Shown here: piece after piece, positions 22,123-59,680 of the stretch
How positions within the stretch are numbered: position 1 is the first letter of the stretch
Layout: every line of letters starts with the position of its first letter
Assembly: GCA_021513695.1 (NCBI GenBank)
Contig: CP084166.1
Location: forward strand, 992,001-1,056,000
Reading direction: 5' to 3'
Length of the DNA stretch: 64,000 nucleotides
Source of the DNA: Candidatus Heimdallarchaeum aukensis
Lineage (GTDB): Archaea > Asgardarchaeota > Heimdallarchaeia > Heimdallarchaeales > Heimdallarchaeaceae
The notes under the pieces: generated by a model
Told to the model about the DNA's origin: nothing
Database searches by the model: none
The model's input: only the letters and a program-made list of their open reading frames with translations
Made by a program: the position numbers and the translations under genes

Positions 22123-22207
22123 TTAAATTAAATAAAATATAAAATCACTTTTTTCTTTTTTTTTAATATTACTTCATTATTCATGAGTTGAAATTTTACT
22201 TAATTTC

Positions 22208-22412
22208 TTCAGGACTCTACCCAACCAGTCAACAAACATATCGAAAGTTGTGAGGACTGGGTTAAGAGAACATGAAAGACACAGTCTTAATTAAGTTCTC
22301 TAGGGGGTTCATCTCCTGATTCCGGGCACTCATCACTCCCACAGGGAAGACCGGGTGTCGTAGGAATGAAACCTACGTCTTTAAGCATCTAGCTCAAGAC
22401 ACTATATAAATG
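22208..22412. ncRNA. Candidate structured non-coding RNA (GC-rich island with several hairpins); class not assigned
   Basis: About 200 nt are near 50% GC inside a 470-bp intergenic gap in a ~30% GC genome. Hairpins include cgtagg-aatgaaa-cctacg, agagaac...gttctct and cagtc...gactg, plus the palindrome cttaattaag. Confidence 0.25.
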
Positions 22413-22593
22413 ATAATTGATTATATAAAGACAGCTGAAAAGTCTTGACACTCCCCCATATCGTGTAATCTTTCTAATAACTCCACAAACTAAAAATTTA
22501 GTTCTTTACGTAAAAAAGTATTTCATCTATATTTGTGTTAAGCAAAAATGGTTGATGAAACATATTCTTTATAAAAGTTAATGTGAAAGATAA

Positions 22594-27942: not shown

Positions 27943-28049
27943 CAAATTTTTTATAGAAAAATAAAACTAATGCTTTTTTTATTTTTTATTTGCACCTAGG
28001 AAAATGTTATTTATTGTTAACGAACTATTGGTATAATAGGAGAAGCAAT

Positions 28050-31174: not shown

Positions 31175-32995
31175 CTCAACCAAGCCATACAATGCTATGA
31201 AGAGGATGAGACAGACATCATACACGAATCGTGGGAATCATAAAGAAGAAAAGAACTAAAAACTCTTTTCTTCACTCCACGAGAGACAAAAAGAAAGAAA
31301 GATTTCCTCCTCCTACAGGAGAGAATTTGTCCTTTCGTTTTTGTCTACTGGGACTGCAACCAATGGCTGAGCCCTAGGCAAACAGTGAAATGGGTAGAAC
31401 TGTATCTTTGACCAGTGAGGTAATCAGTGATAGTGTTTCCTTGAGGACTGAAAAGAGCACCAAGGAACTTACGAGCGATATTCATTGCTCCTGTGAGGTC
31501 AGAGTGGAAAGTGTAATTGCAAGAAGAACAATGAACTAAACCTCTTACTGGACGGACAACTTTCCTTCCACAACGAGCACAGTGAGAAGATGTCCCTTTT
31601 TCCTCTATCGTTAATATTCGGTGAGGGTCAAAACCTCTTAATATTAGTGCCCGACGGAGAAGAGTAAGAACAAGGTAAAAATTCCACTGATGAAGTTTCC
31701 TGCGAAACTTACGAGTACTTTTACCTTTCTCTTTTCCTTTCTCCTCGCGAACATGTTTAGGGTAACCTACAACGACGAAAAGGTCATACATTCGCGCATA
31801 GGTCTCTATCGTCTGCACAACCTCACTTACAAATTGGTAAATATAGGCTCGTTTAACGTTTCTATATCTTCTTCGAAGAAGACTAAGAAAACGATAAACT
31901 TGATGTTTTTTACCCGACTGGTCGTTTAAAGCTGCTTTTCTCTGAAGACGGGAAAGTTTGACTTTATATCGATGGTTGACTCTATTCCACTGTTTGGTAT
32001 GCCAGAATTTTATCTCCTTACTTGTTAATTTCTTTTTAGGGGTTAGTAACACTCCTGCAGCAGGAATGTTTATCCCTAGATCTATTCCCAGCACAGCTGG
32101 GGGGAGAGAAGAAGAATTCTCTTCTTTAGGAGGATAAAAAGAAGAAGGAAGAACTCTTAGTTGGAAATACACCCACCATTCATGTGTAGAACGTTTATAT
32201 CTTAGTTCTAAACTTTTCACCCTCCCTTTTTTTAACTCTTTCTGGTGGAAAGTGCTCATCTCTAAAGGTAACCATAACTTCTGATGATAGGAGGTGTTTC
32301 TTCTCCACGTATCTAACGAGTCTCTTATCCCCACCCACCAACGAGTGAGAGTGTTATTCTTCTCTTTAGGTAAATGGACGAGAACGAACCTCTTTGCATT
32401 AATTAGTTGTCTTCTCACTCTCTTTATTGGAGGACGAGTAGAACTGGGTTTATAACCTTGTTCGTATAATTGCACAGCTATATCTCTACATTCTTGAAAT
32501 TCGTTGTGGGAACAATAAGGGAACATTTTCTTCAGGTCGTGAGGAACAGTCTTTCTTCTCTCTTCTTCTTTAACTTTTGAAGTCGTTAGCGTCAATTCAT
32601 CTAGTTTTCCTCTATGAACTCTTATTTTCCCTTTTTTAGTTTTAGCACATATTTTTCTTCTGTTGTGATGAATTATTCTCACATACTTCTCTATTATCCT
32701 CGTGTCTCTCCCCGTTATTCTCCTTAACCTTTCCTTTTTCCTCGTCGTCAACACCTCATTCTTTATTCTCACTTTCAAGGTTTTGACGACGTCCTCCACC
32801 ATTCTTTTCCTTCCTTCTTTTCTTTTTCTGTTTATTTTTTCTCTTGTTTTTTCTTCTTATCTTTTTTTATTCTACTTTTTTTCCCTATAAAAACCCCTCT
32901 CCTCTTTCTCCTCTCCTTTCTTCTCTTTTTTCTCTCCTTCTTCCTCAACAACTGTAAATTACGTGAAAAATAGACACATGGTGACACAGGAAAAA
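31175..32995 (-). mobile_element. IS200/IS605-family TnpB-only element: leader, tnpB and a 3' flank that may encode a guide RNA
   Basis: The upstream leader on the gene strand (32803-32990 on +) is purine-rich and carries ctataaaaacccc. That sequence is homologous to the leader of the first element (cttactttttttccctat..aaaaccc shared). The 3' flank at 31175-31345 shares tctttctttcttt and gtggagtgaaga with the first element. Confidence 0.55.
31345..32802 (-). CDS. tnpB: TnpB (IS605 OrfB-family RNA-guided nuclease homolog), apparently intact
   Basis: RuvC-I is AVLGIDLGINIPAAG, the zinc finger is HCARCGRKV...CSSCNYTF and RuvC-III is HSDLTGAMNIARKF. The RuvC-II position reads VVVGYPKHV, with no Glu at the canonical position. 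The other copy has the same change, so it may be a family feature. Confidence 0.75.
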   Translation of the reverse strand: MVEDVVKTLKVRIKNEVLTTRKKERLRRITGRDTRIIEKYVRIIHHNRRKICAKTKKGKIRVHRGKLDELTLTTSKVKEEERRKTVPHDLKKMFPYCSHNEFQECRDIAVQLYEQGYKPSSTRPPIKRVRRQLINAKRFVLVHLPKEKNNTLTRWWVGIRDSLDTWRRNTSYHQKLWLPLEMSTFHQKELKKGRVKSLELRYKRSTHEWWVYFQLRVLPSSFYPPKEENSSSLPPAVLGIDLGINIPAAGVLLTPKKKLTSKEIKFWHTKQWNRVNHRYKVKLSRLQRKAALNDQSGKKHQVYRFLSLLRRRYRNVKRAYIYQFVSEVVQTIETYARMYDLFVVVGYPKHVREEKGKEKGKSTRKFRRKLHQWNFYLVLTLLRRALILRGFDPHRILTIEEKGTSSHCARCGRKVVRPVRGLVHCSSCNYTFHSDLTGAMNIARKFLGALFSPQGNTITDYLTGQRYSSTHFTVCLGLSHWLQSQ

Positions 32996-33000
32996 TAAAA

Positions 33001-34553
33001 TGGAAATTTAAAACTGGGGGATCAATAAGAGCATCTCCAGCTCTAGGAGATCTTAACAATGATGGCTATCTGGATATAGTTATAGGGTCTTCTGATTCTT
33101 ATTACTATGCATTTAATGGAAGAACTAGGACAATCCTCTGGACACTCAAGACAGAACTAATAATAGGGGGAACTGCTCCAACATTGGCAGACGTTGATGG
33201 GGATAACGAACTAGATGTCCTACTTAATGGTAAAAATGTGTATCTTGTTGGAGGAAGAAAGGGCAATTTAATCTCTATTTATAATCAAAATGAAGAGGTT
33301 GGAACTTCTATCACTGTTGGTGATTTGGATAATGATGGCAGTTTTGAGATGATATATGGTTCCAAAAGTGGAAACGTTTTTTGTTATACGATTACTAATT
33401 CTGATAAAACAAGTTATAGGATCTATTGGCAGGGGGATGGTGGTGATTTCTTCAATTCTGGAAACAGTTTTACAATAGATAAAGATGGAGATACTGTTTC
33501 TACTTTCTCTGAAAAAATTATTGGAACAGACCCAGAAAAAAGGATACGGATGGAGATTTTCTTATAGATGGATATGAAATATCTGCTACTAAAACAGACC
33601 CCTTAGTTCAAGATTCAGATAATAATAATATCGGAGACCAGAATGAAGATTTTGATGGTGATGGGTTAACAAACCTAGAAGAATATAAGAAAAAAACAGA
33701 TCCTTTGAGTAGAGACACAGATGAAGATTTTATACCAGATAAAATTGATATTTTCCCAATTTTGTTTCCAGAAGGTTTAATTTATCTCTCTCTATTCTTT
33801 CTTTTATCAATATTAATAGTTTCTACAATAGTAAAAAAGAGAATAGAAAATAAAGGCGATAAAAATGAAAGTCTTATTCTTAAATTTAAAATGAAAAGAA
33901 ATCAAATATTATCAGAGATATCTTGGAAAGGCTCTTATAATAATTACAAAAGTGTTCATTTACAAGCTTTTAGATGGTTTGGAATTTTTGCTATTTCATC
34001 TGCAATAATGATTAATTTTATCATTTATCCACTTTTTAAAACAGAAATTGTTTACCATGATATTGTAAAAACAAGCTATTCTACAGTTATCTATGTTTTA
34101 ATTAATGTTATTTATTTTGCGTTATTTTATTTATTAGGTTCTGGTTTTTACTCGCTAGGGTTTTCAAGTAATGGAGTAACTTTTAGCTATGATTCTATTG
34201 CTACAAACTTGTTTCTTTCTTCTCTTATCATTTTAAGCATTTCTTTCGTAAAAGTATCAATAAACTTAATTTTACTTCCAATTTTAACTTATTTACTTAC
34301 ATCTGCTTTCATCACACTTTATAATATACGAAAGGAAAAGATTACTAATAGTAATAATCTCTTAAACTTTGTTTTCATCCTTTTTCCAATATCTTTTCTA
34401 TCTCTTTTATGGTATCAAACGCTTTCTTTCTATTTTGCTATTCCACAACAAATTTTGAGGATAATTTCTTTGATAACAGGAGTGTTAATGTTTCTTCTAG
34501 CACTAGAAATCTTTACATTATCTACTCTGAATTCTCGTGAAAAAACAAAATAA
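33001..34553 (+). pseudogene. FG-GAP repeat + thrombospondin-type-3-like (DxDxDG) repeat + polytopic membrane domain gene. It is interrupted by a frameshift in an A7 run and lacks an in-frame start next to the IS leader
   Basis: The frame is open from a stop at 32971 and reads WKFKTGGSIRASPALGDLNNDGYLDIVIGS... (FG-GAP). At cagaaaaaaggatacggatgg (about 33536-33556) the reading shifts. It then continues DTDGDFLIDGYEISATKTDPLVQDSDNNNIGDQNEDFDGDGLTNLEEYKKKTDPLSRDTDEDF... into the listed ORF 33705..34553, which has 7 or more TM helices. Confidence 0.5.
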
Positions 34554-34990
34554 AGAGCATTTGAAATCTAACAATTCTAGTACTCCTTTCTAATTTTTTT
34601 ATCTCACATAGATAATAGTTAGTTGTAATGTTTGAAAACAGGTTGTGAATAAAGTAATAATAGCTCCTCTGTCATTGATTATGCAATAAGTATAATCTTC
34701 CATATTCTTGACATTACATCTTATCTCTCAAATATGATTATCTATATGAACTCATTTCTTTAAACAAACTATCTTCATTTGCTTATTTTTGTAAATAGTA
34801 CATAATTTCCTATTATTAAGACAACAAAAATCTCCTAAAAAGTTCGGTAATACATGATTGAAAGAAGTCGATTGATGGAGAAATCCTGGTGATTAACTTC
34901 TTGAGAGATACTAATTAATTATTTTCGAGCAAATGCTCAAGAAAATGATTATTCTTCTTGGAACTCTTTAAACTACAAGACAGAGTAATT

Positions 34991-36031
34991 TTATGCTCTT
35001 TCACATTTATTTTTTTCATTATTTTCTACAATACATAGTTCTAGAAGTATATCATACGTTTTTATCATCTCTCTCATAGTTTTTAACATTATTGGGTAAA
35101 GACGCATAATACTATGATTCTTTGTATATTTATAATCTGAATGATAATTAGGATAACGCGAAGCACCAACATGTTTTTCCAAATTCATGCTTAAAATAAC
35201 TATATATGCAAACAGTAGTATAAGATAAAGATAACTTTCTATTTGTACTAACCAATCTTCTTTCTGAATTTGTGTGATAAATTCTTCTCTCAACATTCTT
35301 CGCTCATCAGTTTGCAATTTGATATTATATTCTTGTTCGATTGTTTGAATGACATAGTCTGTTATGCTAATGAACTCTTCTTTCACAATTTTATCAAAAT
35401 TTTCTTTTCTTATGGATTTTATTCCTTTCCTAAATAATGAAAACAGCTTGTTGTATTTAATTAATATTTCCTTTAATGTAGTGTGTTCAAGATACAGAGT
35501 TTCTTCTGATTTCCTTTTTTGCTCATAATCACTCAAATATTTATCAATTGCTTCTATAATGCTTAAAAATCCTTCTCTTTGGTTATCATTAGAATAATCA
35601 GCTAAAGATTCATAGAGATCTTTTAGTTTTTCGAAGAAGAATTTAGTAAAAGTATGTCCAACTTTTATAAGCCGTTCAGTTTGACACAGTCCAGTAAGTA
35701 GAAGTAGTGATTTTCCTAATTTCTCAACAGATTGTTGGAGGAAGAAAATAGACTGTGCATATAGTTTCTTGTGATATAGAATTTTTGAAGCTCTTAAATC
35801 CTCTTCAGCAGTATCTAACAGTCCTAAAGCTGATATTAAATCTCTCTTTTCTGGTGGGATCTCATACTGTGATCCATATTTTAATTGCCATATTAATTGC
35901 CTTTTGATATCTTCTATATCTGTTTCTTGTAATGCAATTTTGTCATTATTATCATTCATTAAATAGCACTGATGGTTAATATTTAAATAATTAATGGCAA
36001 CTATTATCATAATGCAATAAAAATCGAGCAT
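34991..36031 (-). CDS. HEPN-domain protein
   Basis: ASKILYHKKLYAQSIFFLQQSVEKLGKSLL is a HEPN N-terminal helix, and ERLIKVGH is an Rx5H motif. The likely true start is the internal MNDNNDK at about 35959. There is a C-terminal hydrophobic segment. Confidence 0.5.
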   Translation of the reverse strand: MLDFYCIMIIVAINYLNINHQCYLMNDNNDKIALQETDIEDIKRQLIWQLKYGSQYEIPPEKRDLISALGLLDTAEEDLRASKILYHKKLYAQSIFFLQQSVEKLGKSLLLLTGLCQTERLIKVGHTFTKFFFEKLKDLYESLADYSNDNQREGFLSIIEAIDKYLSDYEQKRKSEETLYLEHTTLKEILIKYNKLFSLFRKGIKSIRKENFDKIVKEEFISITDYVIQTIEQEYNIKLQTDERRMLREEFITQIQKEDWLVQIESYLYLILLFAYIVILSMNLEKHVGASRYPNYHSDYKYTKNHSIMRLYPIMLKTMREMIKTYDILLELCIVENNEKNKCERA

Positions 36032-36183
36032 CTGCTCTTTAAAATGAGAAACTATTTTATATTAAAAACTCTTAATTGGTTTTAAAACATGATAATTAAA
36101 GAAAAAAGAATAATTAAATCCTTCTATTTAACTATAAGGAGGAGTAAATAAACATAAAAAAATTGTGAGTAGAAGGGAAATAT

Positions 36184-37419
36184 ATGTCATTTAATTTTGA
36201 AGTTAAAAATACAATTGCATCCTTAAGGCAATCAAGGTTGAAGCTTGGCAATGTAGAAATAGAAACACCAAATTATATAATGACACATATTGAAACTAGA
36301 CGACTTACTACAGGGTATAATCTTGTTGGGAGTCGTGAGCCTAACCCAAAACTGAATGAATTAATTAGTGATCATATACCTGATAGATTAACTGCACAAA
36401 AAATATTTGAAAACTCCGATGAAATAGAAAAATTATGTAACAAGCTAGATAACTTGACTAAATCTGATCGGATGAATTTTGTTCAATTTCGTTTGAAGGC
36501 TGGAAATGAAATTAGCAAATATGAATTATGTCAAATTGTTAGGTTGCAGTCTGATATGAACAAATTTTCCATTATAACAATACCTGATCCTACTTGTTCA
36601 TATAATAACTCTTGGATTGATTCTATGGAAGCAGCTCTCTATGAGGCTAAGGTTTCACAAGAAGTTGGAACATCGGAACTATTTATGCCTACTGTTTCGC
36701 TTGCTCAGCCTTTATTGGATGTGGAAAAGAAAATTTCGTGGTTAATAGATAAGCAAGTTCCATCCATTGGATTAAGAGCACACGGGCCACATTTTCCAGC
36801 TACTTTGCACAAATCAACAAATCTGATTACACAATCAGATAATCCGATTTGGATTCATCTGTTTGACTTATCCAAAAAATATAAGAATGTGTCCCAACTG
36901 CATTTGGCACCTTTGACAAGTGTTGATACTATTTCCTTGAAAAAAAAACATGGGTATAGCAGCAGCAAGAAAAATATTATGGATGGTTTATTGCCAACAC
37001 CAGAGAATATATCTTTAGAACCAACTGCTAGGGAAATAGAAGAACAAAAGGTCAGAGAGATAAAGCGTAGTCAACGGTTTTTGTTTGAGCAATTAGCTTT
37101 AGGTTACATTTCTATAAATGAGCGGACTAAATGGATTGGTCATGAACTTTCTTGTACTTGTCCCATTTGTAAAAAGACAAAAGATATAGATACCTTTAGG
37201 ATTTATCTCTCAACACATGATAAAAACTCACTTCTACAAGTGCATGAATATACTGGTTTTAACCAGGAAATGTTGGCAATTAGAAAAAATATTAGGGATA
37301 ATGATATCTCAGAGTATTTTAGACAAAAAATATTAGTAAAACGACATAGACGCAAACTATCTAAAAGATATCCTGAGCTTGAAAGGTTTATTAATCCGCC
37401 TTTAGATAGTTACTTCTGA
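36184..37419 (+). CDS. Divergent tRNA-guanine transglycosylase (TGT) family protein (ArcTGT/DpdA-like)
   Basis: The N-terminus MSFNFEVKNTIASLRQSRLKLGNVEIETPNYIMT parallels archaeal TGT (FEIK..GR.G.L....IETP..MPV). Candidate catalytic Asp residues sit in QSDMNKF and HLFDLS. The zinc site is ELSCTCPICKKT...H, followed by LLQVHEY. About 100 aa of C-terminal extension are basic. Confidence 0.6.
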   Translation: MSFNFEVKNTIASLRQSRLKLGNVEIETPNYIMTHIETRRLTTGYNLVGSREPNPKLNELISDHIPDRLTAQKIFENSDEIEKLCNKLDNLTKSDRMNFVQFRLKAGNEISKYELCQIVRLQSDMNKFSIITIPDPTCSYNNSWIDSMEAALYEAKVSQEVGTSELFMPTVSLAQPLLDVEKKISWLIDKQVPSIGLRAHGPHFPATLHKSTNLITQSDNPIWIHLFDLSKKYKNVSQLHLAPLTSVDTISLKKKHGYSSSKKNIMDGLLPTPENISLEPTAREIEEQKVREIKRSQRFLFEQLALGYISINERTKWIGHELSCTCPICKKTKDIDTFRIYLSTHDKNSLLQVHEYTGFNQEMLAIRKNIRDNDISEYFRQKILVKRHRRKLSKRYPELERFINPPLDSYF

Positions 37420-37447
37420 GATATTTATCCAAGAAAAGGTGATATAA

Positions 37448-38059
37448 ATGAATCAAAAAGCGACAAAAAATATGTCGGAAGAAGAAAATAAAATGATAAA
37501 AAAATGGATCTATTTAATGTTAGCTGCAGATAACAATAGTTCAATCAAAGGAAAAGTTAGAATAACTAAAGAATTCTTTTTGATTACCAAGCAGTTAGCT
37601 CCTGAAGTATTTAAGGCAGCTCAATTCTATCCTTATCACTTTGGGCCTTATAGTACTCGTTTTGCTGTTTGTGTTAACGAACTGATTAAAAGTAATCATA
37701 TTAATATATTGTATAAAAGTGGAGATTATCATTATGAGTTGTCAAAAAAAGGTTTAGTTGAAGCTAAAAAATATTTGAAAACAATCCCTAAGAAAGAAAA
37801 ACAAGTAATTGATGATATTAAGAAAAAAAGTAAGTCTCAATCTTTAAAATCAATGTTAAAAGAAATTTACGAAAAATATCCTAAGTATACAGTTCGTTCT
37901 GTTATTAAAGCAGATCTTGATACTAAAAAAGTAAACTTAGATTCTGTAGAAAAAGTAGATGATAGTTCAGGGTTTGTTTCAAGTGATATGAAACATGAAC
38001 GTGACATCGTCTTGAAAGGTGAAGCTGCAAAAAGATTTCTAGAAATAATCTCAAAGTGA
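37448..38059 (+). CDS. Hypothetical protein, candidate antitoxin for the downstream GNAT toxin
   Basis: It ends 7 nt before the GNAT toxin. Its C-terminus ERDIVLKGEAAKRFLEIISK resembles the toxin-binding C-terminal helix of DUF1778 (TacA/AtaR) antitoxins. At 203 aa it is much longer than typical. Confidence 0.4.
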   Translation: MNQKATKNMSEEENKMIKKWIYLMLAADNNSSIKGKVRITKEFFLITKQLAPEVFKAAQFYPYHFGPYSTRFAVCVNELIKSNHINILYKSGDYHYELSKKGLVEAKKYLKTIPKKEKQVIDDIKKKSKSQSLKSMLKEIYEKYPKYTVRSVIKADLDTKKVNLDSVEKVDDSSGFVSSDMKHERDIVLKGEAAKRFLEIISK

Positions 38060-38066
38060 TACATCA

Positions 38067-38570
38067 ATGACTAGTCATGAAGTAGAGTATAAAATTGAGA
38101 AACTAAATATATCTCATACTCTATTAGACTTTGATTGTGGTGATGAAAACGTTAATGAGTATTTTAATCAGAGAAGCTATGAAGAAGTTGAATTAGGTAA
38201 TGCTCAAATTTATGTGTTTATACTTGTGAATACAAATGACCTCATAGGTTTCTATACGCTTTCAATGAAATCTGTTCGTTTTAACTATGAAGGAAGAGAA
38301 TATGATCAACCTGTGTGTTTGCTTGGGCAAATTGGAGTAAATAAAATTTTCCAAAATAAAGGTTGGGGAACAATATTAATTAAAGATGCAAAGAAGAGAT
38401 GTAAAAAAATCTCAGAAGATATTGGAAGCATTGGTTTATTATTGGAAACATATAAAGAAGAATTAGTGAACGGGTTTTTCAAGAAACTTGGTTTCGAATA
38501 TGTTGAACATCACAAAATGAAAAACCGAGGTACAAGATATAGATTGTTTTGCAAACATGAACATGAATAG
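38067..38570 (+). CDS. GNAT-family toxin of the AtaT/TacT/KacT type (aminoacyl-tRNA acetyltransferase toxin family)
   Basis: LLDFDCGDENVNEYFNQRSYEEVELGNAQIYVFILVNTNDLIGFYTLSMKSVRF, then LLGQIGVNKIFQNKGWGTILIKDA, then IGLLLETYKEELVNGFFKKLGFEYV. These align block by block with AtaT (F.CG.e.Ln.fL / vGyYtL / QGqGwG / LGF). Confidence 0.7.
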   Translation: MTSHEVEYKIEKLNISHTLLDFDCGDENVNEYFNQRSYEEVELGNAQIYVFILVNTNDLIGFYTLSMKSVRFNYEGREYDQPVCLLGQIGVNKIFQNKGWGTILIKDAKKRCKKISEDIGSIGLLLETYKEELVNGFFKKLGFEYVEHHKMKNRGTRYRLFCKHEHE

Positions 38571-38625
38571 AAAAAGGAGAAATGGATATAAAACAGCTTA
38601 CTCTATTTAAAGCTTAAAGCTATTT

Positions 38626-38666
38626 TTGAATATTATTCTTTACTTTTTTCTAGCTCTAATCCTCTC
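38626..38666. repeat. Copy A of a 41-bp dispersed repeat (IS/tnpB-leader-related)
   Basis: ttgaatattattctttacttttttctagctctaatcctctc differs from copy B at 41085-41125 by three transitions. The core tattctttacttttttc also appears in both tnpB leaders. Confidence 0.7.
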
Positions 38667-38901
38667 TTCTTGTTTAATTACTGTAAGTATAATTACTTGT
38701 TCGAGTGTAAGATTGTTGAAGTTCAGTTCAGTACCTAAATCATCCAAAAAAATAGTTATTTAATAGGAATTTATATTTAACTCGAAAAAATCCCATTTTT
38801 AATATTTCTTTATGAAAGTATTTTCAATAAACGGAAAGTTTGCTACAAGAACTCGAAGAGTTTTCTATTACTATTGCAATCCTTCTTTTTTAAAATGTAA
38901 T

Positions 38902-39354
38902 TTATTGTATAGAATCTATGAACCTCTTTAAATCCTCTTCTGGTAAATCAGTATATTTCTTATATCTCTTGAATTTTTTACTGAAGAATTTTATATCAAC
39001 ATAAATTTGTATTTTCTCTTTGCCTTCAATTTGTTTTCTGTCTGTTACAGGAAAAGTTGCCCAATATAACTTGTATTCTTTTGAATGCTTAAGTTCATAT
39101 TGTTGTTGTTTTGGTCTTATCTTTCCTTGATACTCAACACTATCAATTATCATTTTTATGTCCAACAGAAACATGAGTGTAGAAGCAGTTCCAGCATTAA
39201 TTATGTAAAGTCCCCATTCTTTTGCTTGTGGGTTGAATATTGGTCCAGATAAGTTTAGCGAAGCTCTTTTTGGTCTAAAGAAGGATAGGTATACTGTTAC
39301 AACTGACAGAAAAATAGATATTGTAGAGAATATTAATGAGACTACTTCTGTCAT
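38902..39354 (-). CDS. Small membrane-anchored hypothetical protein
   Basis: An N-terminal TM helix MTEVVSLIFSTISIFLSVVTVYLSFF, a second hydrophobic stretch, and a charged C-terminus. Confidence 0.4.
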   Translation of the reverse strand: MTEVVSLIFSTISIFLSVVTVYLSFFRPKRASLNLSGPIFNPQAKEWGLYIINAGTASTLMFLLDIKMIIDSVEYQGKIRPKQQQYELKHSKEYKLYWATFPVTDRKQIEGKEKIQIYVDIKFFSKKFKRYKKYTDLPEEDLKRFIDSIQ

Positions 39355-39589
39355 AAATACTAATACACATTATCAATTAATTAACAGTTCGGTATATTGT
39401 TTCACCCATGGCACATTCACCCCAAGATAAAATACTGAACCATTAGATGTTGGATCAATTGGTAAGGAGATCCTAAAGATTAAAGAGTAGTTTGATTTAG
39501 AGATTATTACTATAAATAATACTTATGTTGCTTTGTTTTGTAATGTTAAAAAACAAGTGATAAGCCAAATTTAAGGTTACTAAGTCTAA

Positions 39590-40933
39590 TTATTCCTCAT
39601 GAAGTAAAGGTGTTTCTAAAAGGACATTTGTTAAGTCGATATTGTTAGGGTTTATTTTTTTTGGATAAACAAAAGAGAAGTGGCAGACGTAAGATTTGTT
39701 GTTTCTTATTATTTTGATCCAAACATTTTCTGGTTTTTCCATTATTATTCTTAACATCCATGATGTATTTTCTTCTGATACTCTAAGCAAGGCATAAAGA
39801 GTTCTTTTTTTTAATTCTAGTGTCTTATACTTTTCGAATTTTTCTTTTAACTGTTCTGCGTTCCCCCAAAAAAGGTTGGGAAAAACTTTTTCATCTTTAT
39901 CAAATACTATTGTTATCTCTTTTATTTTATTGTACTCTGAAATATCTTTCAAGATTTCCTTCTTTTCATCAATAGGGATTCTTTGTTGAATACCTCTAGA
40001 TTTTCTTAAAATTTGATCGAGGAGAAACCATATTGAATTGTCCATATATTTAATAAACGAATTAATTTCCATTTTAAATGCAACTTCTGTTTTTTGTATT
40101 TCTACATTACCTTTTTTATTTATCCAACCGTTTATTTTAAAATAAGAAAAACGAGGATCGACATATTCGAAAGATTGTTTGGGTGGAAAGGTTTTTCCAT
40201 TTTTTCTTGCCAAAGTTATTGCATCTTCTATCCATAATTTGAAATTGGTATTTGCTGACCTTGCGGGAATTTTGTCAATAATAACCCATATCTCATCGTT
40301 ATTGAAATCCAGAACTTTTTTACCACTATGTGTAACAGTATTACGTAAGTATAGAAACACACTGAATGCAAGTGATGGATTGATATATTTATCTGAATAG
40401 GGCTCGTAATGTCTAATTAGTTCATCAAAAATACGTTCATACCTATATCGTTTTAATTCGGGAAGATTATTTAAATACGCTTCTGTGAATCTTGAAGTTA
40501 GTTCCAAAAGTTCCAGACCAGCTGAAACATATGTTTCAAAGAGACATATAAAAAGGAACTTTATAGTTGGTATTTTAGTCCAATCAAATCGTATTTGATA
40601 ATACTCTATTTGGTCTCTTACTAATTGGAAGTACGCAAGTCTATATTTAATGCTGTTTAATGTTTCAATATACCTTCCTTTTTTCACTAATTCATTAATA
40701 TGAAAAACTAGTAAACTGTAGTCTCTTGATTCGTTATGTGCTTCCAGATAGTATGAAAACATACTCAAAACGCCAAGACTTGTATCAAGAACATGCCGAG
40801 AAATACTAATTTCTTTTTTTTCTTTTTTTTCTTTTAACGAATTAAAAAACTCATATTCGTTAAGCAAAATTTTTAACAAAAGTTCATGAGATTCTTTACT
40901 TTCTATTTCTTGCTTATCCTTATTTTGATTCAT
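39590..40933 (-). CDS. Hypothetical 447-aa protein, no recognised domain
   Basis: A long ORF whose 5' end faces repeat copy B and its pyrimidine-rich leader-like tract. Confidence 0.45.
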   Translation of the reverse strand: MNQNKDKQEIESKESHELLLKILLNEYEFFNSLKEKKEKKEISISRHVLDTSLGVLSMFSYYLEAHNESRDYSLLVFHINELVKKGRYIETLNSIKYRLAYFQLVRDQIEYYQIRFDWTKIPTIKFLFICLFETYVSAGLELLELTSRFTEAYLNNLPELKRYRYERIFDELIRHYEPYSDKYINPSLAFSVFLYLRNTVTHSGKKVLDFNNDEIWVIIDKIPARSANTNFKLWIEDAITLARKNGKTFPPKQSFEYVDPRFSYFKINGWINKKGNVEIQKTEVAFKMEINSFIKYMDNSIWFLLDQILRKSRGIQQRIPIDEKKEILKDISEYNKIKEITIVFDKDEKVFPNLFWGNAEQLKEKFEKYKTLELKKRTLYALLRVSEENTSWMLRIIMEKPENVWIKIIRNNKSYVCHFSFVYPKKINPNNIDLTNVLLETPLLHEE

Positions 40934-41084
40934 TTGTTATTAATATTATTTTATAACAAAATAAAAAAGTTTAGTTAAATATTACTGTGCAATTCTTCCT
41001 CTATTTTGATAAATAAATGAACTAGAATAATTTTCTTTCCAAGAATAAACTGCCTTTAAGGATAGTTAATAAGTAGTTAAAGGT

Positions 41085-41280
41085 TTGAATATTATCCTTT
41101 ACTTTTTTCCAGCTCTAACCCTCTCCCCTCTCCCATCTTTACAATCCTTCTTTCCCCTGAAATTATTTTTTTTGTTTCCTTTTTCTATATTCTCTTTTCT
41201 TTCTAACCAACCTTATACTCTTTTTCTTTACCTTTGTTCTTGTTATTGCTTTTGTTACTGTTTTTAGTCCTAGTTCTGTA
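41085..41280. repeat. Copy B of the 41-bp repeat, followed by a pyrimidine-rich leader-like tract
   Basis: ttgaatattatcctttacttttttccagctctaaccctctc is followed by about 150 nt of C/T-rich low complexity, like the leader region 5' of tnpB-2. Confidence 0.65.
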
Positions 41281-41500
41281 CTATTAGTTCAGTCTCTTTT
41301 TTAGGATAATCTGTGGATAGTAATTCTTCAAGAAATTAGAGGAAAAATATGAAATCAATAATAAACTTTCTCTAAATTGTCTTAAGGTCTTCTTCTAGTT
41401 ATAACCTCCTTACAAGAAGATGCTTTACTTTGCAACAAAATGAAAAATAAACTAAAGAAACTATTCATAGGGTTTAAATACTTATTTCTCGTATAGGCTA

Positions 41501-42637
41501 ATGATGGAAATAAACAAAATTTATCTTAAAGATTGTATAGAAGGTATGAAGGAACTTCCTGAAGATAGCATAGATTTAATATTTGCAGATCCACCATATA
41601 ATCTTCAATTGAAAAATGAATTATATCGACCTAATCAGTCATTAGTGGATGCTGTAAATGATGAATGGGATAAATTTTCATCATTTGAAGAGTACGATGA
41701 TTTTACAAAAAAGTGGTTATCAGAATGTAGGAGGGTGTTAAAAAAAACAGGTTCTATATGGGTAATAGGGTCGTATCACAATATATTTAGAATCGGAAAA
41801 ATAATGCAAGATTTAGGTTTCTGGATATTAAATGATATCATTTGGATAAAAACAAACCCTATGCCAAATTTTAGAGGTACTAGATTTAATAATGCACATG
41901 AAACTCTGATTTGGGCTTCGAAAAATGAAAAAGCTAAACCTACTTTTCATTATAAAGCTATGAAGGTATTTAATAATGATAAACAAATGCGAAGTGATTG
42001 GTATATTCCAATTTGTATAGGAAAAGAAAGGTTGAAATTAAACGGAAAAAAATTACATTCTACACAAAAACCTGAAGCATTGCTATATAGAATAATAATA
42101 TCAACATCAAATGTAAATGATATAGTGCTTGATCCTTTTATGGGTTCAGGTACTACAGCTGCAGTAGCAAAGAAACTAAGAAGGAATTTTATTGGTTTTG
42201 AAACAAATGAAATATATGTAAAAGCAGCAAGAGAGAGAGTTGTTAAAGTCATACCCATGGATCCTGACATTTTGGATTATAAAGTGGAAAAAAAACCACC
42301 AAAAGTTCCTTTTGGTACTTTAGTAGAACATAATTATATTAAAGCTGGAGATTGGCTTTATTCAAAAGATATGAGATATAAAGCAATAATAAAAGCAAAT
42401 GGGTCAATTGAATATCAAGGTAAAAACGGTTCTATTCATAAAATTAGTGCTCAAATTTTAAATAAAAAAGCAAATAATGGATGGGATTTTTGGTATGTAA
42501 AAGAAAACGATAATCTTGTATCGATTGATACTATTAGAAGAAATTATGCAAGTAAAAACATGAATTATATGAATGATGAAATAGATATGAGAAATAAAAA
42601 AGTAACAGACAAACTTTTAACTAATTACTTGGAATAA
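41501..42637 (+). CDS. DNA methyltransferase, beta-class (N6-adenine or N4-cytosine), part of a Type II R-M pair
   Basis: Motif IV IFADPPYNL lies near the N-terminus and motif I LDPFMGSGTTAAVA lies downstream, which is the beta-class order. About 130 aa of C-terminal extension follow. Confidence 0.85.
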   Translation: MMEINKIYLKDCIEGMKELPEDSIDLIFADPPYNLQLKNELYRPNQSLVDAVNDEWDKFSSFEEYDDFTKKWLSECRRVLKKTGSIWVIGSYHNIFRIGKIMQDLGFWILNDIIWIKTNPMPNFRGTRFNNAHETLIWASKNEKAKPTFHYKAMKVFNNDKQMRSDWYIPICIGKERLKLNGKKLHSTQKPEALLYRIIISTSNVNDIVLDPFMGSGTTAAVAKKLRRNFIGFETNEIYVKAARERVVKVIPMDPDILDYKVEKKPPKVPFGTLVEHNYIKAGDWLYSKDMRYKAIIKANGSIEYQGKNGSIHKISAQILNKKANNGWDFWYVKENDNLVSIDTIRRNYASKNMNYMNDEIDMRNKKVTDKLLTNYLE

Positions 42638-42642
42638 TCTTC

Positions 42643-43512
42643 GTGCTTACTAATTATCTTCCCTATGAAGTTTTTAAAAGAATATTAACAAAGACAATCT
42701 TTCAAAATGCTAAAATAAGTTTATTAGAAAAAGTTGCTAAATATCCTTCAAGATATACAGGTTTATTTAGGCCTACCAAACCTAAATTAAAATTAATCCA
42801 GAACATTACTCAATCAAATGAAATTCTATTTGGCGATGCTTTTGAGATCATAATTAATGAATATTTGAATAGATTAGGTTTCTCTCCAATTAAAAAAAAT
42901 TATTCCTATAATGGAAATGACTTAATGTTTGATCAGATTGTAGGAAAAGAAAATACTATTATTTACATAGAACAAAAAATAAGAGATGATCATGATTCAA
43001 CAAAAAAAAGAGGTCAAATAGAAAATTTTGAGAAAAAGGGTGAATTATTATTGAAACTATATCCTGATTTCAAAATTACTGGTATAATGTATTTTATAGA
43101 CCCAAATTTAAAGAAAAATCGAAGATATTATATGCAAGAATTACAAAGAATAAGTACTCAATTTAATTTTGAAACTCATCTCTTTTATGGAAAAGAGTTT
43201 TTTGAATGGATAGGAAAAGATGAAATCTGGTTAGAAATAACAAGCTATTTATCAAAGTGGAAAGAAGAGATACCTGATTTTCCCACAATTAATTTTGATG
43301 AAAATCCCGAAGAATCTTTTGAGGAAATCAAGCATCTACAACCTAATTTACTGATAAAGCTTCTAAGAAATGATGCAATATGTAAGGAGATTTTTCCCGA
43401 ATTGTTCCCGGAAAAAACGACATTAAATCTACTTCTGGAATACTATATTCATGAAAGAGAAAAAAATAAGACTAATACAATGGTTATTGAACATTTAAAA
43501 AAAGTGTTGTGA
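42643..43512 (+). CDS. Putative Type II restriction endonuclease, cognate to the methyltransferase
   Basis: It starts 5 nt after the methyltransferase stop. A PD-(D/E)xK-like arrangement is present: ...DAFEIII... D..MFDQIV... IIYIEQKIRDD (D...ExK). Confidence 0.45.
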   Translation: MLTNYLPYEVFKRILTKTIFQNAKISLLEKVAKYPSRYTGLFRPTKPKLKLIQNITQSNEILFGDAFEIIINEYLNRLGFSPIKKNYSYNGNDLMFDQIVGKENTIIYIEQKIRDDHDSTKKRGQIENFEKKGELLLKLYPDFKITGIMYFIDPNLKKNRRYYMQELQRISTQFNFETHLFYGKEFFEWIGKDEIWLEITSYLSKWKEEIPDFPTINFDENPEESFEEIKHLQPNLLIKLLRNDAICKEIFPELFPEKTTLNLLLEYYIHEREKNKTNTMVIEHLKKVL

Positions 43513-44322
43513 AAAAAAATCTAAAATCACAAAAAAGATCTATATAATTGTACGATTTTTTGTTCAAAAAAAAACTATCACCGTTTGATTGACATGTTAT
43601 AAAAATAGTTTCTGAAGAAAAACCTTTACATCCATTAACTCTCAGATGCTTTATACCATTATTTTGAAATAGATACTACATGCTTGAATTAAAATGAATT
43701 TCTGGACTAGTTGATTTTCCTTTCTTAATTATAAATTATATAATTTTCCTAATTGAATTGAGAGATAATTTTTCTTTTTCAAACCAAGCATGATCTATTA
43801 TAGGAGGTTTTAAACGGAGAAGATTCAAACTTTGGATATATATTCTACATATATTATAAATATTGTTTGATATTCATCATTTGAGTTTCTCAATAAAAGA
43901 TTATTCCATATTTTAGTTTCTAGTTTGAAGATTATGAATTATTTAATAAATGTCTTAAATTCGGGATACCTTTCTTTCATATTTTCCTCAGAATCATGTA
44001 ATGGAATTTGTAGTGTTCCTTTTACTAATATTCTATATTCCTCAAGTTTAAGAATATGATTTGATTATAGCAGTGTGCCATTACTTGTTATGTTTGTTGT
44101 TATTTTTTTCGATAAATGTAGAGATTCTGGTAAAGAAATAATGTTTTCAGTTATGAATTGTATATTATCATGAAATCTAACCTTCTTAATTTAACTCAAA
44201 TTAATTAAGTAGTAAAGATAATAAAAGAAGGTATCTAAATGTTTATTGCGGAGATTTATTATAGGGTTTTTAATTTTCATCTCCCACATCGAATAATACG
44301 CATTTATCAATAAATCCTTATA

Positions 44323-45342
44323 TTAATTAGAGCAATATGAAGTTTTATTTGTGAAAATTTCAGGATCATCTAGTTCTCTCAATCTTTTAAGTGTAACACT
44401 TTTCCATTTATCATAAAAATCAACTAAAATACCTTCTTTTTCCTTTAATGTTGGTTTTCCTGTATCATCATCCATAATAAATTCAAATCCGTAATCAATC
44501 TTAAAATTAAATTGATCTGTATGCAAAACTCTTTCATGAGGAAACTTAATATCGTTATCCAAAGATGAACAAAAATTATAATGTCGAACTTCAATATGAA
44601 TTGATGAGTTTGAATATAAACCAAGCCAGTCCATTATATTTTTCTTTGTTGATTGAGGATTATATCTATTTGCTTTCGGTGTTGTAGTACAAATAATAAA
44701 ATTGCCATTTCTTATATTCTCCTTTTCAAATTGTTTTACTAACCAATTTAATGTTTTATAGTGTCGCTTATTATTAACTAAATTTACACCAAGATATCTG
44801 TCCACAATCATTACTTCCTTTGCAAATCTGAATATCTTTTTGATAAATCTTGAATGCACTTCTGTTAAATTATTTAATTCTGCTAAGTTTAATGATGTAT
44901 TCTGTATTTTATTGTAGAAATCTATTTCTGTAATTAATTCCTCTGATACATAGCTACTACTCAATTTTCCAATTTCACACTTATTTCTACAATTATTGTA
45001 AGGAAGTATTATCCAATCTGGATTTTCTCTGCTTTGAATTTCACAATAAGCTATACATTCATCTTTTTTTTTCTTTCCTTCAATTTTAATTTCAATTATT
45101 CTTCTATTATTTTGCATATTCGAAAGCATTTCTTCTATGATGAGTCTTTCTTCTATTGGTATAAGTGAAAGGGTTTTTGATTTAATAGGTAAACTAAAAC
45201 CTTCTGGTTTTAGAAGTATACCGTTTTTTCTAAGGGAAATCAATAAAGAAACTAATATTTTAGAACGATACATAATAAGCGTAGAATTTTCAGAATTGTC
45301 ATCTAAAATTTTAGGAGATAATACAAATGTCTGTACCGTCAT
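44323..45342 (-). CDS. Hypothetical 339-aa protein, partner of the upstream ABC ATPase; candidate nuclease/effector
   Basis: Its start overlaps the stop of the ATPase gene by 4 nt. It contains an acidic cluster EFIMDDDTGKP that could be a DxD metal site. No confident domain assignment. Confidence 0.45.
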   Translation of the reverse strand: MTVQTFVLSPKILDDNSENSTLIMYRSKILVSLLISLRKNGILLKPEGFSLPIKSKTLSLIPIEERLIIEEMLSNMQNNRRIIEIKIEGKKKKDECIAYCEIQSRENPDWIILPYNNCRNKCEIGKLSSSYVSEELITEIDFYNKIQNTSLNLAELNNLTEVHSRFIKKIFRFAKEVMIVDRYLGVNLVNNKRHYKTLNWLVKQFEKENIRNGNFIICTTTPKANRYNPQSTKKNIMDWLGLYSNSSIHIEVRHYNFCSSLDNDIKFPHERVLHTDQFNFKIDYGFEFIMDDDTGKPTLKEKEGILVDFYDKWKSVTLKRLRELDDPEIFTNKTSYCSN

Positions 45343-47249
45343 TCAAATAGCTCCTTATAACTTAGATCAAAGAAATCATCTGGCCATTCATTTATAAAAT
45401 TACCATGTTTGTCAAATTCGATAGGAACTATATTAGCTCCTAGTTTTGTTTTTTCAACAAATATAATTGATATAAGTTTTGGACTTATTTTCTTTTTCCT
45501 AATGAGTTTTTTGATTCGTAGAATTAATTGTTGACTATGAGTTTCAATTATAAATTGTTTTGATAAATTCCTTTTAACATGTTCAACAAAAAATTCTCCC
45601 AATTCAGCTTGCAATCTTGGATTAAGATGTATCTCTGGTTGTTCTATTAAAAGAATTTCATTTGGTTTATTTGACATTATCGTTTGTACAAGAATGGGGA
45701 GAACCTGACTCACACCAAATCCAATATCCGGTAATGCCACCGGATATTTTGTGATATTATCTTCGAATTTCAAGGAATATACCCCTGATAGTTTGTCTTT
45801 ATCTGCTGTATATGAGACTGTGTAACCGATTTTTAGTTTTTTCAACCAATTATTTAGTTCATTTATTTTATTTTTATATGAATAGATAAAATCTGCTGTT
45901 TTTGATCCTGAAACACCTACATTAATAGGTCTACTCCCTCCAAATATGTAATATCGAGATGGTTTATCTCTAAGAGGACCAATAAAAGTAATGCTCTTCA
46001 TCAATTCAATGAATTGATTTCTATTCTCTTCAGTCACGTCATAATCAAAATATAAATTCTTTTTTCCATGTTCAAGTTTAAAAAACGTGTTGATTTTAAG
46101 TAATTCACCTTTAATTGGATTACCAACAAATTCAATAGATAAATTATGATGAATAAACTTAATTAATTTGTTAATTAGATCTGTTTCTATCTCCGATGGG
46201 TCTTTAAACATAATAATTCTAAATAATTTCTCAATTTTCATATTAATTGATTCTTCAATTAGAATCCTAAAATCATGATCGATTAAAATATCATCTTTTA
46301 TTTCATTTAAACCAATTTCAACCTTTTTGCAAATTTTTTCAATTATTTTATCTTTTTTTAACAGAAAAAATTTGTTTTTTTCTAATTCTCTTCTAATTTT
46401 TTCTACTATATTTTTAATTTCAATTTTTTTCGCTTGACTATTTTCCTGATAAATTTTCAATATAGTTTCTATAGGAACTTTAATATTAATCGTAGGAATT
46501 TTATCGTTATCAAAATGAATCTTCTTTTCAATTTTTTCTTCTATATCAAAGACATCAATTTTAAATTTCTCTTCATATGCAGAATAAGAGATTATAAATG
46601 GTGTATCAATGTTTTCAACAATTGTGATTTTCTTGTATCCTCCAGATATTGACTCTCTCAAAAACGGTAAAAGAATCATCGGTATAACTCTTTCTGTACT
46701 TATTTTTGAAAGAGAACAAGTATATTTTATCCGCTGATAAATCCTAGAATTTTCTGTTTTGCAATATACTAATTTTGCTGAAATTAATGATTTTTCAATC
46801 TTTTTGCCATAATTTCTAGATATTCCCCATATTATTTTATCTAAAAGAATGTAAGGTCTCTCTTCAATCTTTTTTGAAATGTATGTTAAGTTGATTTTGA
46901 ATTTTTTAAAAATCCTTTCCTTGTATGGTGAAATATGAAGATAATCTGAGGATCGCCACTGTAACCCAATTTCAACTCTTTTTCTAGTATCATGACCAAA
47001 AACAATTTCTTCGAAAGGTCCAATATCAACATAAGTCCCTTGATGTAGAAGAACATTATTTGGGTCATTGTCTTCTATAGTTTGTTTTAAGGCTAAAAGT
47101 GATTTCAAAATAGATGATTTTCCACTACTATTTTCTCCAAATATCAGTGTAATCGGTTTACATGGTATTCTAGAGCCCTTTTTTCCAAAGGCTTTAAAAT
47201 TTCTTAAATAAATTTCAGTTAACATGAACAAACACCAAGTTTCTTTCAT
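45339..47249 (-). CDS. ABC-type (AAA_15/AAA_21-like, OLD/AriA/LmuB-like) ATPase with a split nucleotide-binding domain
   Basis: An N-terminal IYLRNFKAF...ITLIFGENSSGKSSIL (Walker A) is followed by about 480 aa of insertion. Then comes LLIEQPEIHLNPRLQAELGEFF (Walker B/D-loop, reading E-Q where D-E is usual) and IIETHSQQ (H-loop). Confidence 0.7.
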   Translation of the reverse strand: MKETWCLFMLTEIYLRNFKAFGKKGSRIPCKPITLIFGENSSGKSSILKSLLALKQTIEDNDPNNVLLHQGTYVDIGPFEEIVFGHDTRKRVEIGLQWRSSDYLHISPYKERIFKKFKINLTYISKKIEERPYILLDKIIWGISRNYGKKIEKSLISAKLVYCKTENSRIYQRIKYTCSLSKISTERVIPMILLPFLRESISGGYKKITIVENIDTPFIISYSAYEEKFKIDVFDIEEKIEKKIHFDNDKIPTINIKVPIETILKIYQENSQAKKIEIKNIVEKIRRELEKNKFFLLKKDKIIEKICKKVEIGLNEIKDDILIDHDFRILIEESINMKIEKLFRIIMFKDPSEIETDLINKLIKFIHHNLSIEFVGNPIKGELLKINTFFKLEHGKKNLYFDYDVTEENRNQFIELMKSITFIGPLRDKPSRYYIFGGSRPINVGVSGSKTADFIYSYKNKINELNNWLKKLKIGYTVSYTADKDKLSGVYSLKFEDNITKYPVALPDIGFGVSQVLPILVQTIMSNKPNEILLIEQPEIHLNPRLQAELGEFFVEHVKRNLSKQFIIETHSQQLILRIKKLIRKKKISPKLISIIFVEKTKLGANIVPIEFDKHGNFINEWPDDFFDLSYKELFE

Positions 47250-47317
47250 TCACACTCTTGATGAATTCTTTACAAATTTATGTAATAAAAATAAAAACTT
47301 TTCTGGAATATCTATGT

Positions 47318-50779: not shown

Positions 50780-50780
50780 T

Positions 50781-53702: not shown

Positions 53703-54374
53703 AAACTTCTCTCCTCATAGGTAATTGTACTAAAACTTATCTTGAATGTTAAACAATTTCTTTTTTTATTTATATAATTTTTGATAATAAATGTTTTCAT
53801 CTTTTATTCATTTATTATCTGTATTCAATAAATTATTCATGAGTTTAGTTTTATCTTTTTAATATTAATCAAAAATATGCTATATGTTTAACTTTGACGA
53901 CTTAGAGTAATCTCAAATTGTTGTTATAGTAGTTAGATTTATTTTTTATTTATATTCACCCACTAAAGTTTTATTTAACTCGCTTCAACTCTTTAAATTA
54001 AATATGTCTAGTTGATAGATACATTTTCATCCTCCTATACGCTTGAAAATACTAGATGATTCTCTAGTTTAAATTATATGGTTAATGTAAGAAGATATAC
54101 AAGTTTAAATGCCATAAAACGGAGACGTTGGCCATGAAACAAAAATAAATAGAATACTGTTGTTTTCTAAGTGCAAAGAAAAATATATAGAAGTATAAAA
54201 TACAAAAATTAGTGTAAGAGAAAAATAAGAAACTCAACAAGAATTTACAAAAAGTAGTTTAGCATAAAAAATAAGAAAGTATTTTATTATGGTGCAATTG
54301 CTAAGACATGACAAAATAATATGGTTGTTTGGTGATTTAATTAGAAAAATTTAATAACCAAAGTAATTAAAAAA

Positions 54375-59660: not shown

Positions 59661-59680
59661 CAGCTTTAATTCATTTCTCT

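Follow-up and report, generated by a model that had tools for sequence, protein, structure and literature searches.

The stretch of DNA analysed here (the window, 64,000 nt; all coordinates are those of the window) belongs to Candidatus Heimdallarchaeum aukensis, whose genome is one of two circularised Asgard genomes (Wu et al. 2022, PMC8813620). That paper does not discuss the locus; restriction, toxin and HEPN do not appear in it. The region in question, from about 34991 to 54332, carries from left to right a gene for a HEPN-domain protein, a three-gene cassette encoding a tRNA-guanine transglycosylase (TGT)-like protein, a 203-aa protein and a GNAT acetyltransferase, two minus-strand open reading frames (ORFs) bracketed by a 42-nt direct repeat, a restriction-modification (R-M) pair and a string of four minus-strand genes (window proteins UJG41674-UJG41682; locus tags K9W45_04220-04255 where given). 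A preliminary description had interpreted the part 34991-43512 as a defence island, and all the ORFs that it reported were found where it had placed them. We examined gene content, family and fold assignments, conservation of the cassette and variability between genomes; the comparison set was the corresponding locus of H. endolithica (L001) and two JGI metagenome contigs (one of which is L025). PADLOC matches given below are to single protein models, not to complete PADLOC or DefenseFinder system rules. The island concept and the R-M pair are ordinary. The newest content is the cassette, then a new HEPN family to which the larger bracketed ORF belongs, with functions that are all predicted.

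The cassette (36184-38570, plus strand) comprises genes for the 411-aa TGT-like, the 203-aa and the 167-aa GNAT proteins, separated by gaps of 28 nt and 7 nt. It recurs in seven divergent Asgard lineages with tight spacing and often overlapping genes. The TGT-like proteins of those seven lineages share 27-48% mutual identity, and the genes adjoining the cassette differ at each locus. Linkage of the HEPN gene to the cassette was considered and rejected, the HEPN gene being missing from the other cassette loci. Contigs bearing the cassette carry Heimdall-, Hel- and Odinarchaeota names. It is very patchily distributed: among 5.8 billion clusters the TGT-like protein has 7 relatives and the 203-aa protein has 46 clusters, of which those with a taxonomic name came from Heimdall-, Hel- and Odinarchaeota metagenome-assembled genomes.

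The third gene of the cassette (38067-38570, plus strand) encodes the GNAT acetyltransferase. Its 15 best matches in the PDB by phmmer, from 8.8e-17 (7f37) to 4.7e-6, extend over nearly the full length and include chains named KacT. The depositors' names are otherwise those of generic acetyltransferases, and among these entries are structures of TacT and AtaT. The protein also matched Pfam Acetyltransf_1 and Acetyltransf_7, the toxin matches being much stronger than these generic ones. An N-terminal FDCGD motif and an acetyl-CoA loop QNKGWG could be read from the sequence, and the protein is 100% identical in H. endolithica. Judged by these similarities, it belongs to the TacT/AtaT/KacT family of tRNA-acetylating toxins, with a predicted activity of that type.

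The first gene (36184-37419, plus strand) encodes the 411-aa protein, a divergent member of the TGT superfamily with a predicted TIM-barrel core. A PDB sequence search with this protein alone gave nothing useful. The profile of its family found a sole match in the PDB, to the archaeosine tRNA-guanine transglycosylase 1iq8 (E 0.0022), in an alignment that takes in FEIK..R..L...IETP near the N-terminus as well as the zinc motif CxCxxC...H. Similarly, TGT was the only recurring Pfam family, seen in 7 of 8 members (best E 1.7e-4). Invariant positions include the four residues of the zinc motif (C324, C326, C329 and H354) together with Asp135, Asp228 and Asp248. The AlphaFold2 (AF2) model was confident solely at residues 50-230, a beta/alpha core. 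Scores of the window protein lay under the curated thresholds (Pfam 16.6 bits vs 26.3; TIGR00432 21.6 bits vs 350), no PADLOC model was matched at E <= 0.1 (Dpd models included, if present) and no viral relatives were found in IMG/VR. We regard the protein as a probable TGT superfamily member, the relation being remote but consistent. In common with tRNA-guanine transglycosylases and DpdA (PF01702), it has the N-terminal strand motif and the C-terminal zinc motif in the order of 1iq8, invariant Asp residues and a predicted beta/alpha-barrel core. It differs from them in its central motifs (IPDP, MPTVSLxQP, WIHLFD and GVDT), in a variable, low-confidence linker of ~50 aa ahead of the zinc motif and in its genetic setting, with no queuosine or archaeosine pathway genes nearby and a constant coupling to the gene of a GNAT toxin homologue.

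The middle gene (37448-38059, plus strand) encodes a winged-helix-like protein of 203 aa, a homologue of PDC-M19A and a presumed antitoxin or adaptor. The window protein matched the PADLOC model PDC-M19A with 1.3e-14, as did all 28 of the 28 family members tested (best E 4e-16). For some relatives there were further matches, to LmuC, to DarG in its C-terminal region and to the tail of a model for Type I S subunits. Pfam matches of the family were all sub-threshold: DUF4364 was found in 8 of 28 members, with the better scores, and SocA_Panacea (PF13274) in 4 of 28 at E 0.022-1, the window protein itself having no match to PF13274. With Panacea (DUF4065, PanA) the protein shares its UniRef name and a position directly upstream of a toxin gene; it differs in that DUF4364 matches more members, and better, than PF13274. 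Its YHFGPYS motif resembles the GP motif of DUF4065. GNAT partners have no mention in the main text of two Panacea network papers.

The larger of the two bracketed ORFs (39590-40933, minus strand) encodes a 447-aa protein. The hidden Markov model (HMM) searches that the preliminary description had proposed for it proved productive: an exhaustive HMMER search of 1.84 billion representatives detected 32 relatives, most of them 290-360 aa long and covering residues 45-310 of the window protein. In an alignment of 26 sequences (19-36% identity), only E133, R197 and H202 were invariant, the last two forming an Rx4H motif (RNTVTH). No Pfam family was matched consistently by the relatives, and the family profile found nothing in the PDB. 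The AF2 model was confident (pLDDT 84), with the all-alpha helical-bundle fold of HEPN proteins, a beta-rich insertion at about residues 208-289 and an extra C-terminal domain at about 330-447. The protein is the founder of a small, unannotated family of predicted HEPN fold.

Neighbourhoods of its homologues contain a ThaI R-M pair, a BrxC/D-like ATPase, ParB_N proteins and an AAA_15/21 ATPase at one locus (L016), an OLD-TOPRIM ATPase at a second (L018) and Fic with a tyrosine integrase at a third (L015). A conserved partner gene was not found, the neighbours at four loci sharing no similarity with one another or with the smaller bracketed ORF. The gene is not in H. endolithica and falls in a singleton cluster. 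In its invariant RNxxxH with an upstream invariant Glu and in the presence of homologues in defence neighbourhoods, the family resembles HEPN toxins and effectors (MNT-HEPN such as SO_3166, AbiA, Csm6). It differs from these in that neither a Pfam HEPN family nor a PDB chain is matched at the level of sequence, in the lack of MNT or any further conserved partner gene, and in a 120-aa C-terminal domain that is present only in the closest relatives of the 447-aa protein. The latter would act as a stand-alone RNase effector, regulated by its beta-rich insertion and C-terminal domain. The family is a small HEPN-fold group unrecognised by profile libraries, concrete and testable.

Both bracketed ORFs had been suggested to be immunity-related. 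The HEPN fold, the invariant RNxxxH and the defence-type neighbourhoods favour this for the 447-aa protein; the suggestion found no support for the other, a 150-aa ORF (38902-39354, minus strand) with no detectable relatives or domains. Here the proposed HMM search was empty, with no family or domain match and no relatives outside the genus. The ORF has an N-terminal hydrophobic helix (hydropathy peak at residues 4-25) and its status as a gene is uncertain: the first 58 codons lie in H. aukensis-specific DNA and the last 91 are common to H. endolithica, where a repeated element interrupts it.

The second HEPN protein of the island is encoded at its left end (34991-36031, minus strand) by a 346-aa ORF, for which the NCBI start at M25 gives 322 aa. 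It matched Pfam HEPN (PF05168) with 1.5e-7 and 32 bits vs a cut-off of 22, over the first 48 profile positions only. Removal of residues 139-257 raised the score to 38.9 bits and extended the match to profile positions 4-96, covering R292-YPNY-H297. Because both score and coverage increase, the HEPN domain appears to be split by an insertion of ~120 aa. The protein had earlier been described as a HEPN protein of the Rx5H type; the domain, above the Pfam threshold, stands, but R120-x5-H126 is probably not the signature motif, for which the candidate Rx4H at 292-297 is more likely. A PDB sequence search with the 346-aa protein gave nothing useful. In the H. endolithica ortholog, W48 is changed from TGG to the nonsense codon TGA (L001 ~8441-8443) ahead of the HEPN domain, and that copy is likely a pseudogene, as expected of dispensable genes. 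The split-HEPN protein would be a stand-alone RNase by prediction. Kinship between the two HEPN proteins of the island was considered separately and rejected (hhalign probability 0.2%).

The R-M pair consists of a methyltransferase gene (41501-42637, plus strand, 378 aa) followed after 5 nt by a nuclease gene (42643-43512, plus strand, 289 aa). The methyltransferase matched Pfam N6_N4_Mtase (3.1e-70) and RAMA (1.2e-14), NCBIfam CcrM (6.5e-168, under the equivalog cut-off) and PADLOC MTase_II (1e-171). Its motif order is that of the beta class, with DPPY at residue 30 and then FMGSG at 213, and it is assigned as a CcrM/M.HinfI-like N6-adenine DNA methyltransferase with a RAMA domain. The nuclease matched NCBIfam restrict_HpyAIV (3.7e-73, 246 bits vs a cut-off of 160) and PADLOC REase_II (7.2e-76), and PF09520 HinfI was found on a relative in its 90%-identity cluster. 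Motif order, family matches and the nuclease motif D93...E110-Q-K112 bear out the earlier recognition of a beta-class methyltransferase with an adjacent nuclease. By family membership, the pair is an ordinary Type II R-M system of HinfI/HpyAIV type, with a predicted GANTC specificity. Like known HinfI/HpyAIV GANTC systems, whose methyltransferase is CcrM-related, it combines a beta-class RAMA methyltransferase with an HpyAIV/HinfI nuclease, here 5 nt on; it differs in its archaeal host and in the absence of detectable GANTC avoidance in the window, and is otherwise without notable features. Avoidance of GANTC was tried as a sign of active restriction and rejected. The window has 144 sites vs 229 ± 13 in dinucleotide shuffles, but this depletion vanishes under a third-order Markov control and in comparison with 15 other palindromes, so that no conclusion can be drawn from the counts.

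To the right of the nuclease gene, 43513-44322 (810 nt, up to the gene of a 339-aa protein) holds no ORF of at least 60 aa and no Rfam match at gathering thresholds. The island then continues with a four-gene minus-strand string, taken as its fifth module. Its first gene (50781-53702) encodes a 973-aa protein with no family match, the second (47318-50779) a 1153-aa protein with a ResIII-type helicase motif (Pfam ResIII 1.7e-6), the third (45339-47249) a 636-aa AAA_15/AAA_21 ATPase with a C-terminal DUF3696 and the fourth (44323-45342) the 339-aa protein, to which no family could be assigned. The first two genes are 1 nt apart and the second and third 68 nt, and the last 4 nt of the ATPase gene are also the first 4 of the fourth. 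The ATPase is of the OLD/ABC type known from defence, with no recognisable nuclease domain, and it matched the PADLOC models NsnB (1.7e-58), HEC-03B and PDC-M55A, all on its C-terminal half. Compared with Menshen (NsnABC) and HEC-03, the partner set is incomplete here, since only this half matches and the 339-, 1153- and 973-aa neighbours match no PADLOC model. No useful PDB match was obtained for the 1153-aa and 973-aa proteins.

We then consider the variability of the region. The H. endolithica locus aligned with window positions 32978-39178 at 97.5% identity. Positions 39178-41314 are missing there and a repeated element of ~385 bp stands in their place. After a short segment common to both (41314-41447), positions 41447-54332 give way to a VapB-like gene and the gene of another AAA_15/21 ATPase; synteny is restored at 54332, where a HAD hydrolase is encoded. 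The two JGI contigs matched 41345-53512 at 99.3-99.7% identity, with unrelated sequence to the left. Hence 39178-54332 is variable, with breakpoints at 39178, ~41345-41420 and 54332; the island reaches ~11 kb past the right boundary given in the preliminary description, to ~54332, and its gene order is not that of a core chromosome devoid of defence annotation.

The segment in which the central breakpoint falls (41345-41447) changes its left context in the JGI contigs and its right context in H. endolithica. A three-way alignment of H. aukensis, H. endolithica and L025 showed a near-identical 40-nt core (41381-41420), which is single in the window and has no significant fold; a recombination hotspot is possible. 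The repeated element occurs also at window 22182-22533 and a second time in L001 (copies at 11725-12109 and, inverted, 17191-17574). Copies are ~350-385 bp long, ~82% identical to one another and relatively G+C-rich, and the synteny break by which the 150-aa ORF is cut short coincides exactly with one of the H. endolithica copies. The element, possibly MITE-like or a non-coding RNA, is without a match in Rfam; the window as a whole gave none, nor did relaxed thresholds in 38560-41510 and 22100-22620.

Divergence between H. aukensis and H. endolithica is 1.2% for the HEPN gene, 1.0% for the TGT-like gene, 0.3% for the 203-aa gene and 0% for GNAT, as against 4-7% for two adjacent genes of the left flank and 6-20% for other shared blocks. 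This low divergence suggests a recent exchange of the HEPN-plus-cassette segment between both species. The right half of the interval 34991-43512 is thus demonstrably variable; the left half is syntenic and looks recently transferred.

Within 20 kb, at least six genes carry conflict-system assignments, including those of the two HEPN proteins and the GNAT toxin homologue. PADLOC models were matched by the methyltransferase (MTase_II), the nuclease (REase_II), the 203-aa protein (PDC-M19A) and the 636-aa DUF3696 ATPase (NsnB/HEC-03B/PDC-M55A). We consider it probable that the region from ~34991 to 54332 is a composite accessory island of conflict systems, made of five independent modules that are swapped between strains at a few fixed junctions. 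The defence island proposed earlier is upheld in the sense of an accessory region rich in conflict genes, with kept flanks, a content that varies among related genomes and several PADLOC model matches. For the published genome, the locus supplies a documented strain-variable island with defined exchange junctions.

Several observations weigh against this interpretation. Of 10 proteins scanned against the PADLOC models, 6 had no match, and the same is true of the 1153-aa and 973-aa proteins. In H. endolithica the position and order of the HEPN gene and the cassette are unchanged, and the left half is not demonstrably variable. With tetranucleotide composition allowed for, GANTC shows no depletion in the window, its ratio to the third-order Markov expectation being 0.90, seventh among 16 comparable palindromes. 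Membership of the 203-aa protein in the family of its UniRef name, 'SocA-like Panacea', could not be confirmed. RHH/DUF1778 antitoxins are the usual partners of GNAT toxins; none is encoded beside the GNAT gene, the 203-aa protein upstream having no RHH or DUF1778 match. Finally, Phe138 of the window GNAT aligns with a Tyr of 7f37, a position occupied by Y in three and F in three of six cassette GNATs. This Tyr, part of a C-terminal F-Y motif, we take to be the general acid in TacT, AtaT and KacT, and because Phe stands in its place the window enzyme could be weakly active or inactive.

The two direct repeats had been noticed before as near-identical sequences bracketing both minus-strand ORFs, and they do so. 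Copy 1 (38625-38666, plus strand) and copy 2 (41084-41125, plus strand) are each 42 nt long and identical at 39 of the 42 positions. Two copies occur in the 64-kb window, with 0 expected by chance. Copy 1 is kept at the orthologous site in H. endolithica, where the repeat core occurs once in the complete genome, and copy 2 lies in H. aukensis-specific DNA. Scans of metagenome DNA for the repeat and for the junction core were nil but uninformative, the junction-core scan having missed a known positive in L025. The alternative left flank of the R-M block in that contig contains an inverted pair, TCCAGCCCTACCTCCC / GGGGGGTAGGGCTCGA (L025 348-363 and 878-893), that loosely resembles the CCAGCTCTAACCCTC core of the 42-nt repeat.

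We regard the repeats as a local duplication at a module junction. Alternatively, they could be att-site or target duplications that arose when a 2.4-kb element (38667-41083), with the 150-aa and 447-aa genes as cargo, was inserted site-specifically, a possibility compatible with a composite island. Direct repeats of 39/42 identity flank exactly these two co-oriented genes, the 447-aa gene is not in H. endolithica and forms a singleton cluster, and one of its homologues lies near a tyrosine integrase (L015). However, no integrase or transposase is encoded between the repeats, no empty site was found and neither repeat folds significantly. The synteny breaks also lie off the repeats: the left one (39178) is 512 nt within the supposed element and the right one (41314) is past copy 2; because they do not coincide with the repeats, they depart from the simple empty-site or att-site prediction. 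We consider such an insertion rather unlikely, and retain the local duplication.

As to the cassette, the preliminary description had seen a TGT-like/GNAT toxin operon. The genes, the TGT relation (remote but consistent) and the match of the GNAT to a toxin family agree with this; its working as a toxin operon is a prediction. Our reading is that the cassette functions in the manner of a type II toxin-antitoxin or abortive-infection module. A GNAT of TacT/AtaT type would acetylate charged tRNA, whereupon translation would stop, and the PDC-M19A-like 203-aa protein encoded just upstream would keep this toxin in check. The TGT-superfamily zinc enzyme would be the conserved third component, most likely binding tRNA or exchanging its bases as a sensor, co-toxin or specificity factor. 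We infer these roles, as we do all biochemical activities named in this text, who neutralises whom and any antiviral role.

Compared with GNAT/RHH modules (TacAT, AtaRT, KacAT, ItaRT), the cassette is alike in that the GNAT matches solved toxins and its gene closes a tight operon, downstream of the gene for a small protein. It differs in that this partner is a PDC-M19A-like, winged-helix-like protein of 203 aa and not RHH/DUF1778, in the conserved TGT-superfamily enzyme as a third component, in Phe138 where 7f37 has Tyr, and in being Asgard-archaeal. In the literature searched the cassette is not described, and no paper linking a TGT-like enzyme with a GNAT toxin was found there; the pairing of a nucleobase-exchange enzyme with an aminoacyl-tRNA acetyltransferase is likewise undescribed for toxin-antitoxin or defence systems. 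The cassette offers a concrete, testable family, in which the homologue of a tRNA-acetylating toxin is paired with a TGT-like enzyme and not with the canonical RHH antitoxin. If the TGT-like protein acts on tRNA or DNA in a conflict system, the roles of transglycosylases would extend past queuosine and archaeosine biosynthesis and Dpd DNA modification. Only tentatively do we go further and propose an Asgard-specific, three-component, tRNA-directed immune or addiction system, in which a base-exchange enzyme acts with or gates an aminoacyl-tRNA acetyltransferase, and, separately, a HEPN effector family founded by the 447-aa protein whose beta-barrel insertion may sense a ligand.

It might be objected that the cassette is a housekeeping RNA-modification operon, for instance a base-exchange enzyme and an acetyltransferase acting on tRNA with a winged-helix regulator. 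The cassette is at the same chromosomal position in both Heimdallarchaeum species, the TGT-like protein retains the zinc ligands and several invariant Asp like an active enzyme, Phe stands in place of the presumed general-acid Tyr in the window GNAT and a classical RHH antitoxin is absent. The very patchy distribution (7 relatives and 46 clusters of 5.8 billion), together with different neighbours at every other cassette locus, speaks against such an operon, as do the closest solved-structure relatives of the GNAT, which are all toxins. Moreover, homologues of the 203-aa family include a candidate from defence hotspots as well as domains of DarG, LmuC and Type I S subunits, and ~99-100% identity between species that differ by 6-20% in other shared blocks points to recent transfer. 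A housekeeping role is therefore improbable, and the conflict module remains our reading of the cassette.

The preliminary description had further called the 42-nt repeats IS-related. On that account they represent leaders or ends of the TnpB insertion sequences of the window, and IS activity would have put this part of the island together. Read as its reverse complement, the repeat indeed shares GAGAGGG..TTA.AG..GGAAAAAAGTA..GATAA with the purine-rich leaders of TnpB at 31345-32802(-) and near 4950(+), with a similarity score that ranks in the top 1% among 160-nt windows of the sequence. Yet 21-214 of 500 composition-matched shuffles scored equally, and MAFFT aligned the repeats to the leaders only in low-complexity purine runs. 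The repeat core is also single in the complete H. endolithica genome, though TnpB elements occur there, and no third copy is present in the 64-kb window. Alignment, shuffle test and genome scan thus lend the IS origin no support, and we hold it to be very improbable; the repeats are left as a local duplication. That the clustering is coincidental, with unrelated genes in an ordinary chromosome to which the word island adds nothing, is barely credible: from 35 to 54 kb the G+C content falls just short of the window average of ~30%, no tRNA gene occurs in the window and neither a tRNA gene nor an integrase marks a boundary, but conflict-system assignments exist for six or more genes within 20 kb, three independent genomes swap modules at shared junctions, and a TnpB gene and the 350-385-bp repeated element lie at or near breakpoints.

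Some further features of the window were observed. The two TnpB/Cas12f-like genes lie at 31345-32802 (minus strand), just left of the island, and at ~4950-6208 (plus strand); their purine-rich upstream leaders are mutual inverted repeats, with arms at 4847-4950 and 32857-32941. Two genes for Gtr1/RagA-like small GTPases (27990-29462, plus strand, and 29463-30686, minus strand; Pfam 1.1e-23 and 2.2e-32), eukaryote-signature proteins typical of Asgard archaea, adjoin a 1535-aa ORF (23335-27942) with no PADLOC match. A tandem array of a 12-nt repeat of AAGAGCAAGAGC-type (16211-16330) lies in the ORF 15574-16323 and is predicted to encode an acidic Glu/Gln-rich stretch. Finally, a tandem gene duplication is suggested by a 300-nt direct repeat (59680-59979 and 60449-60748, 83% identical) that overlaps the starts of both neighbouring minus-strand ORFs (59681-60247 and 60450-61481).

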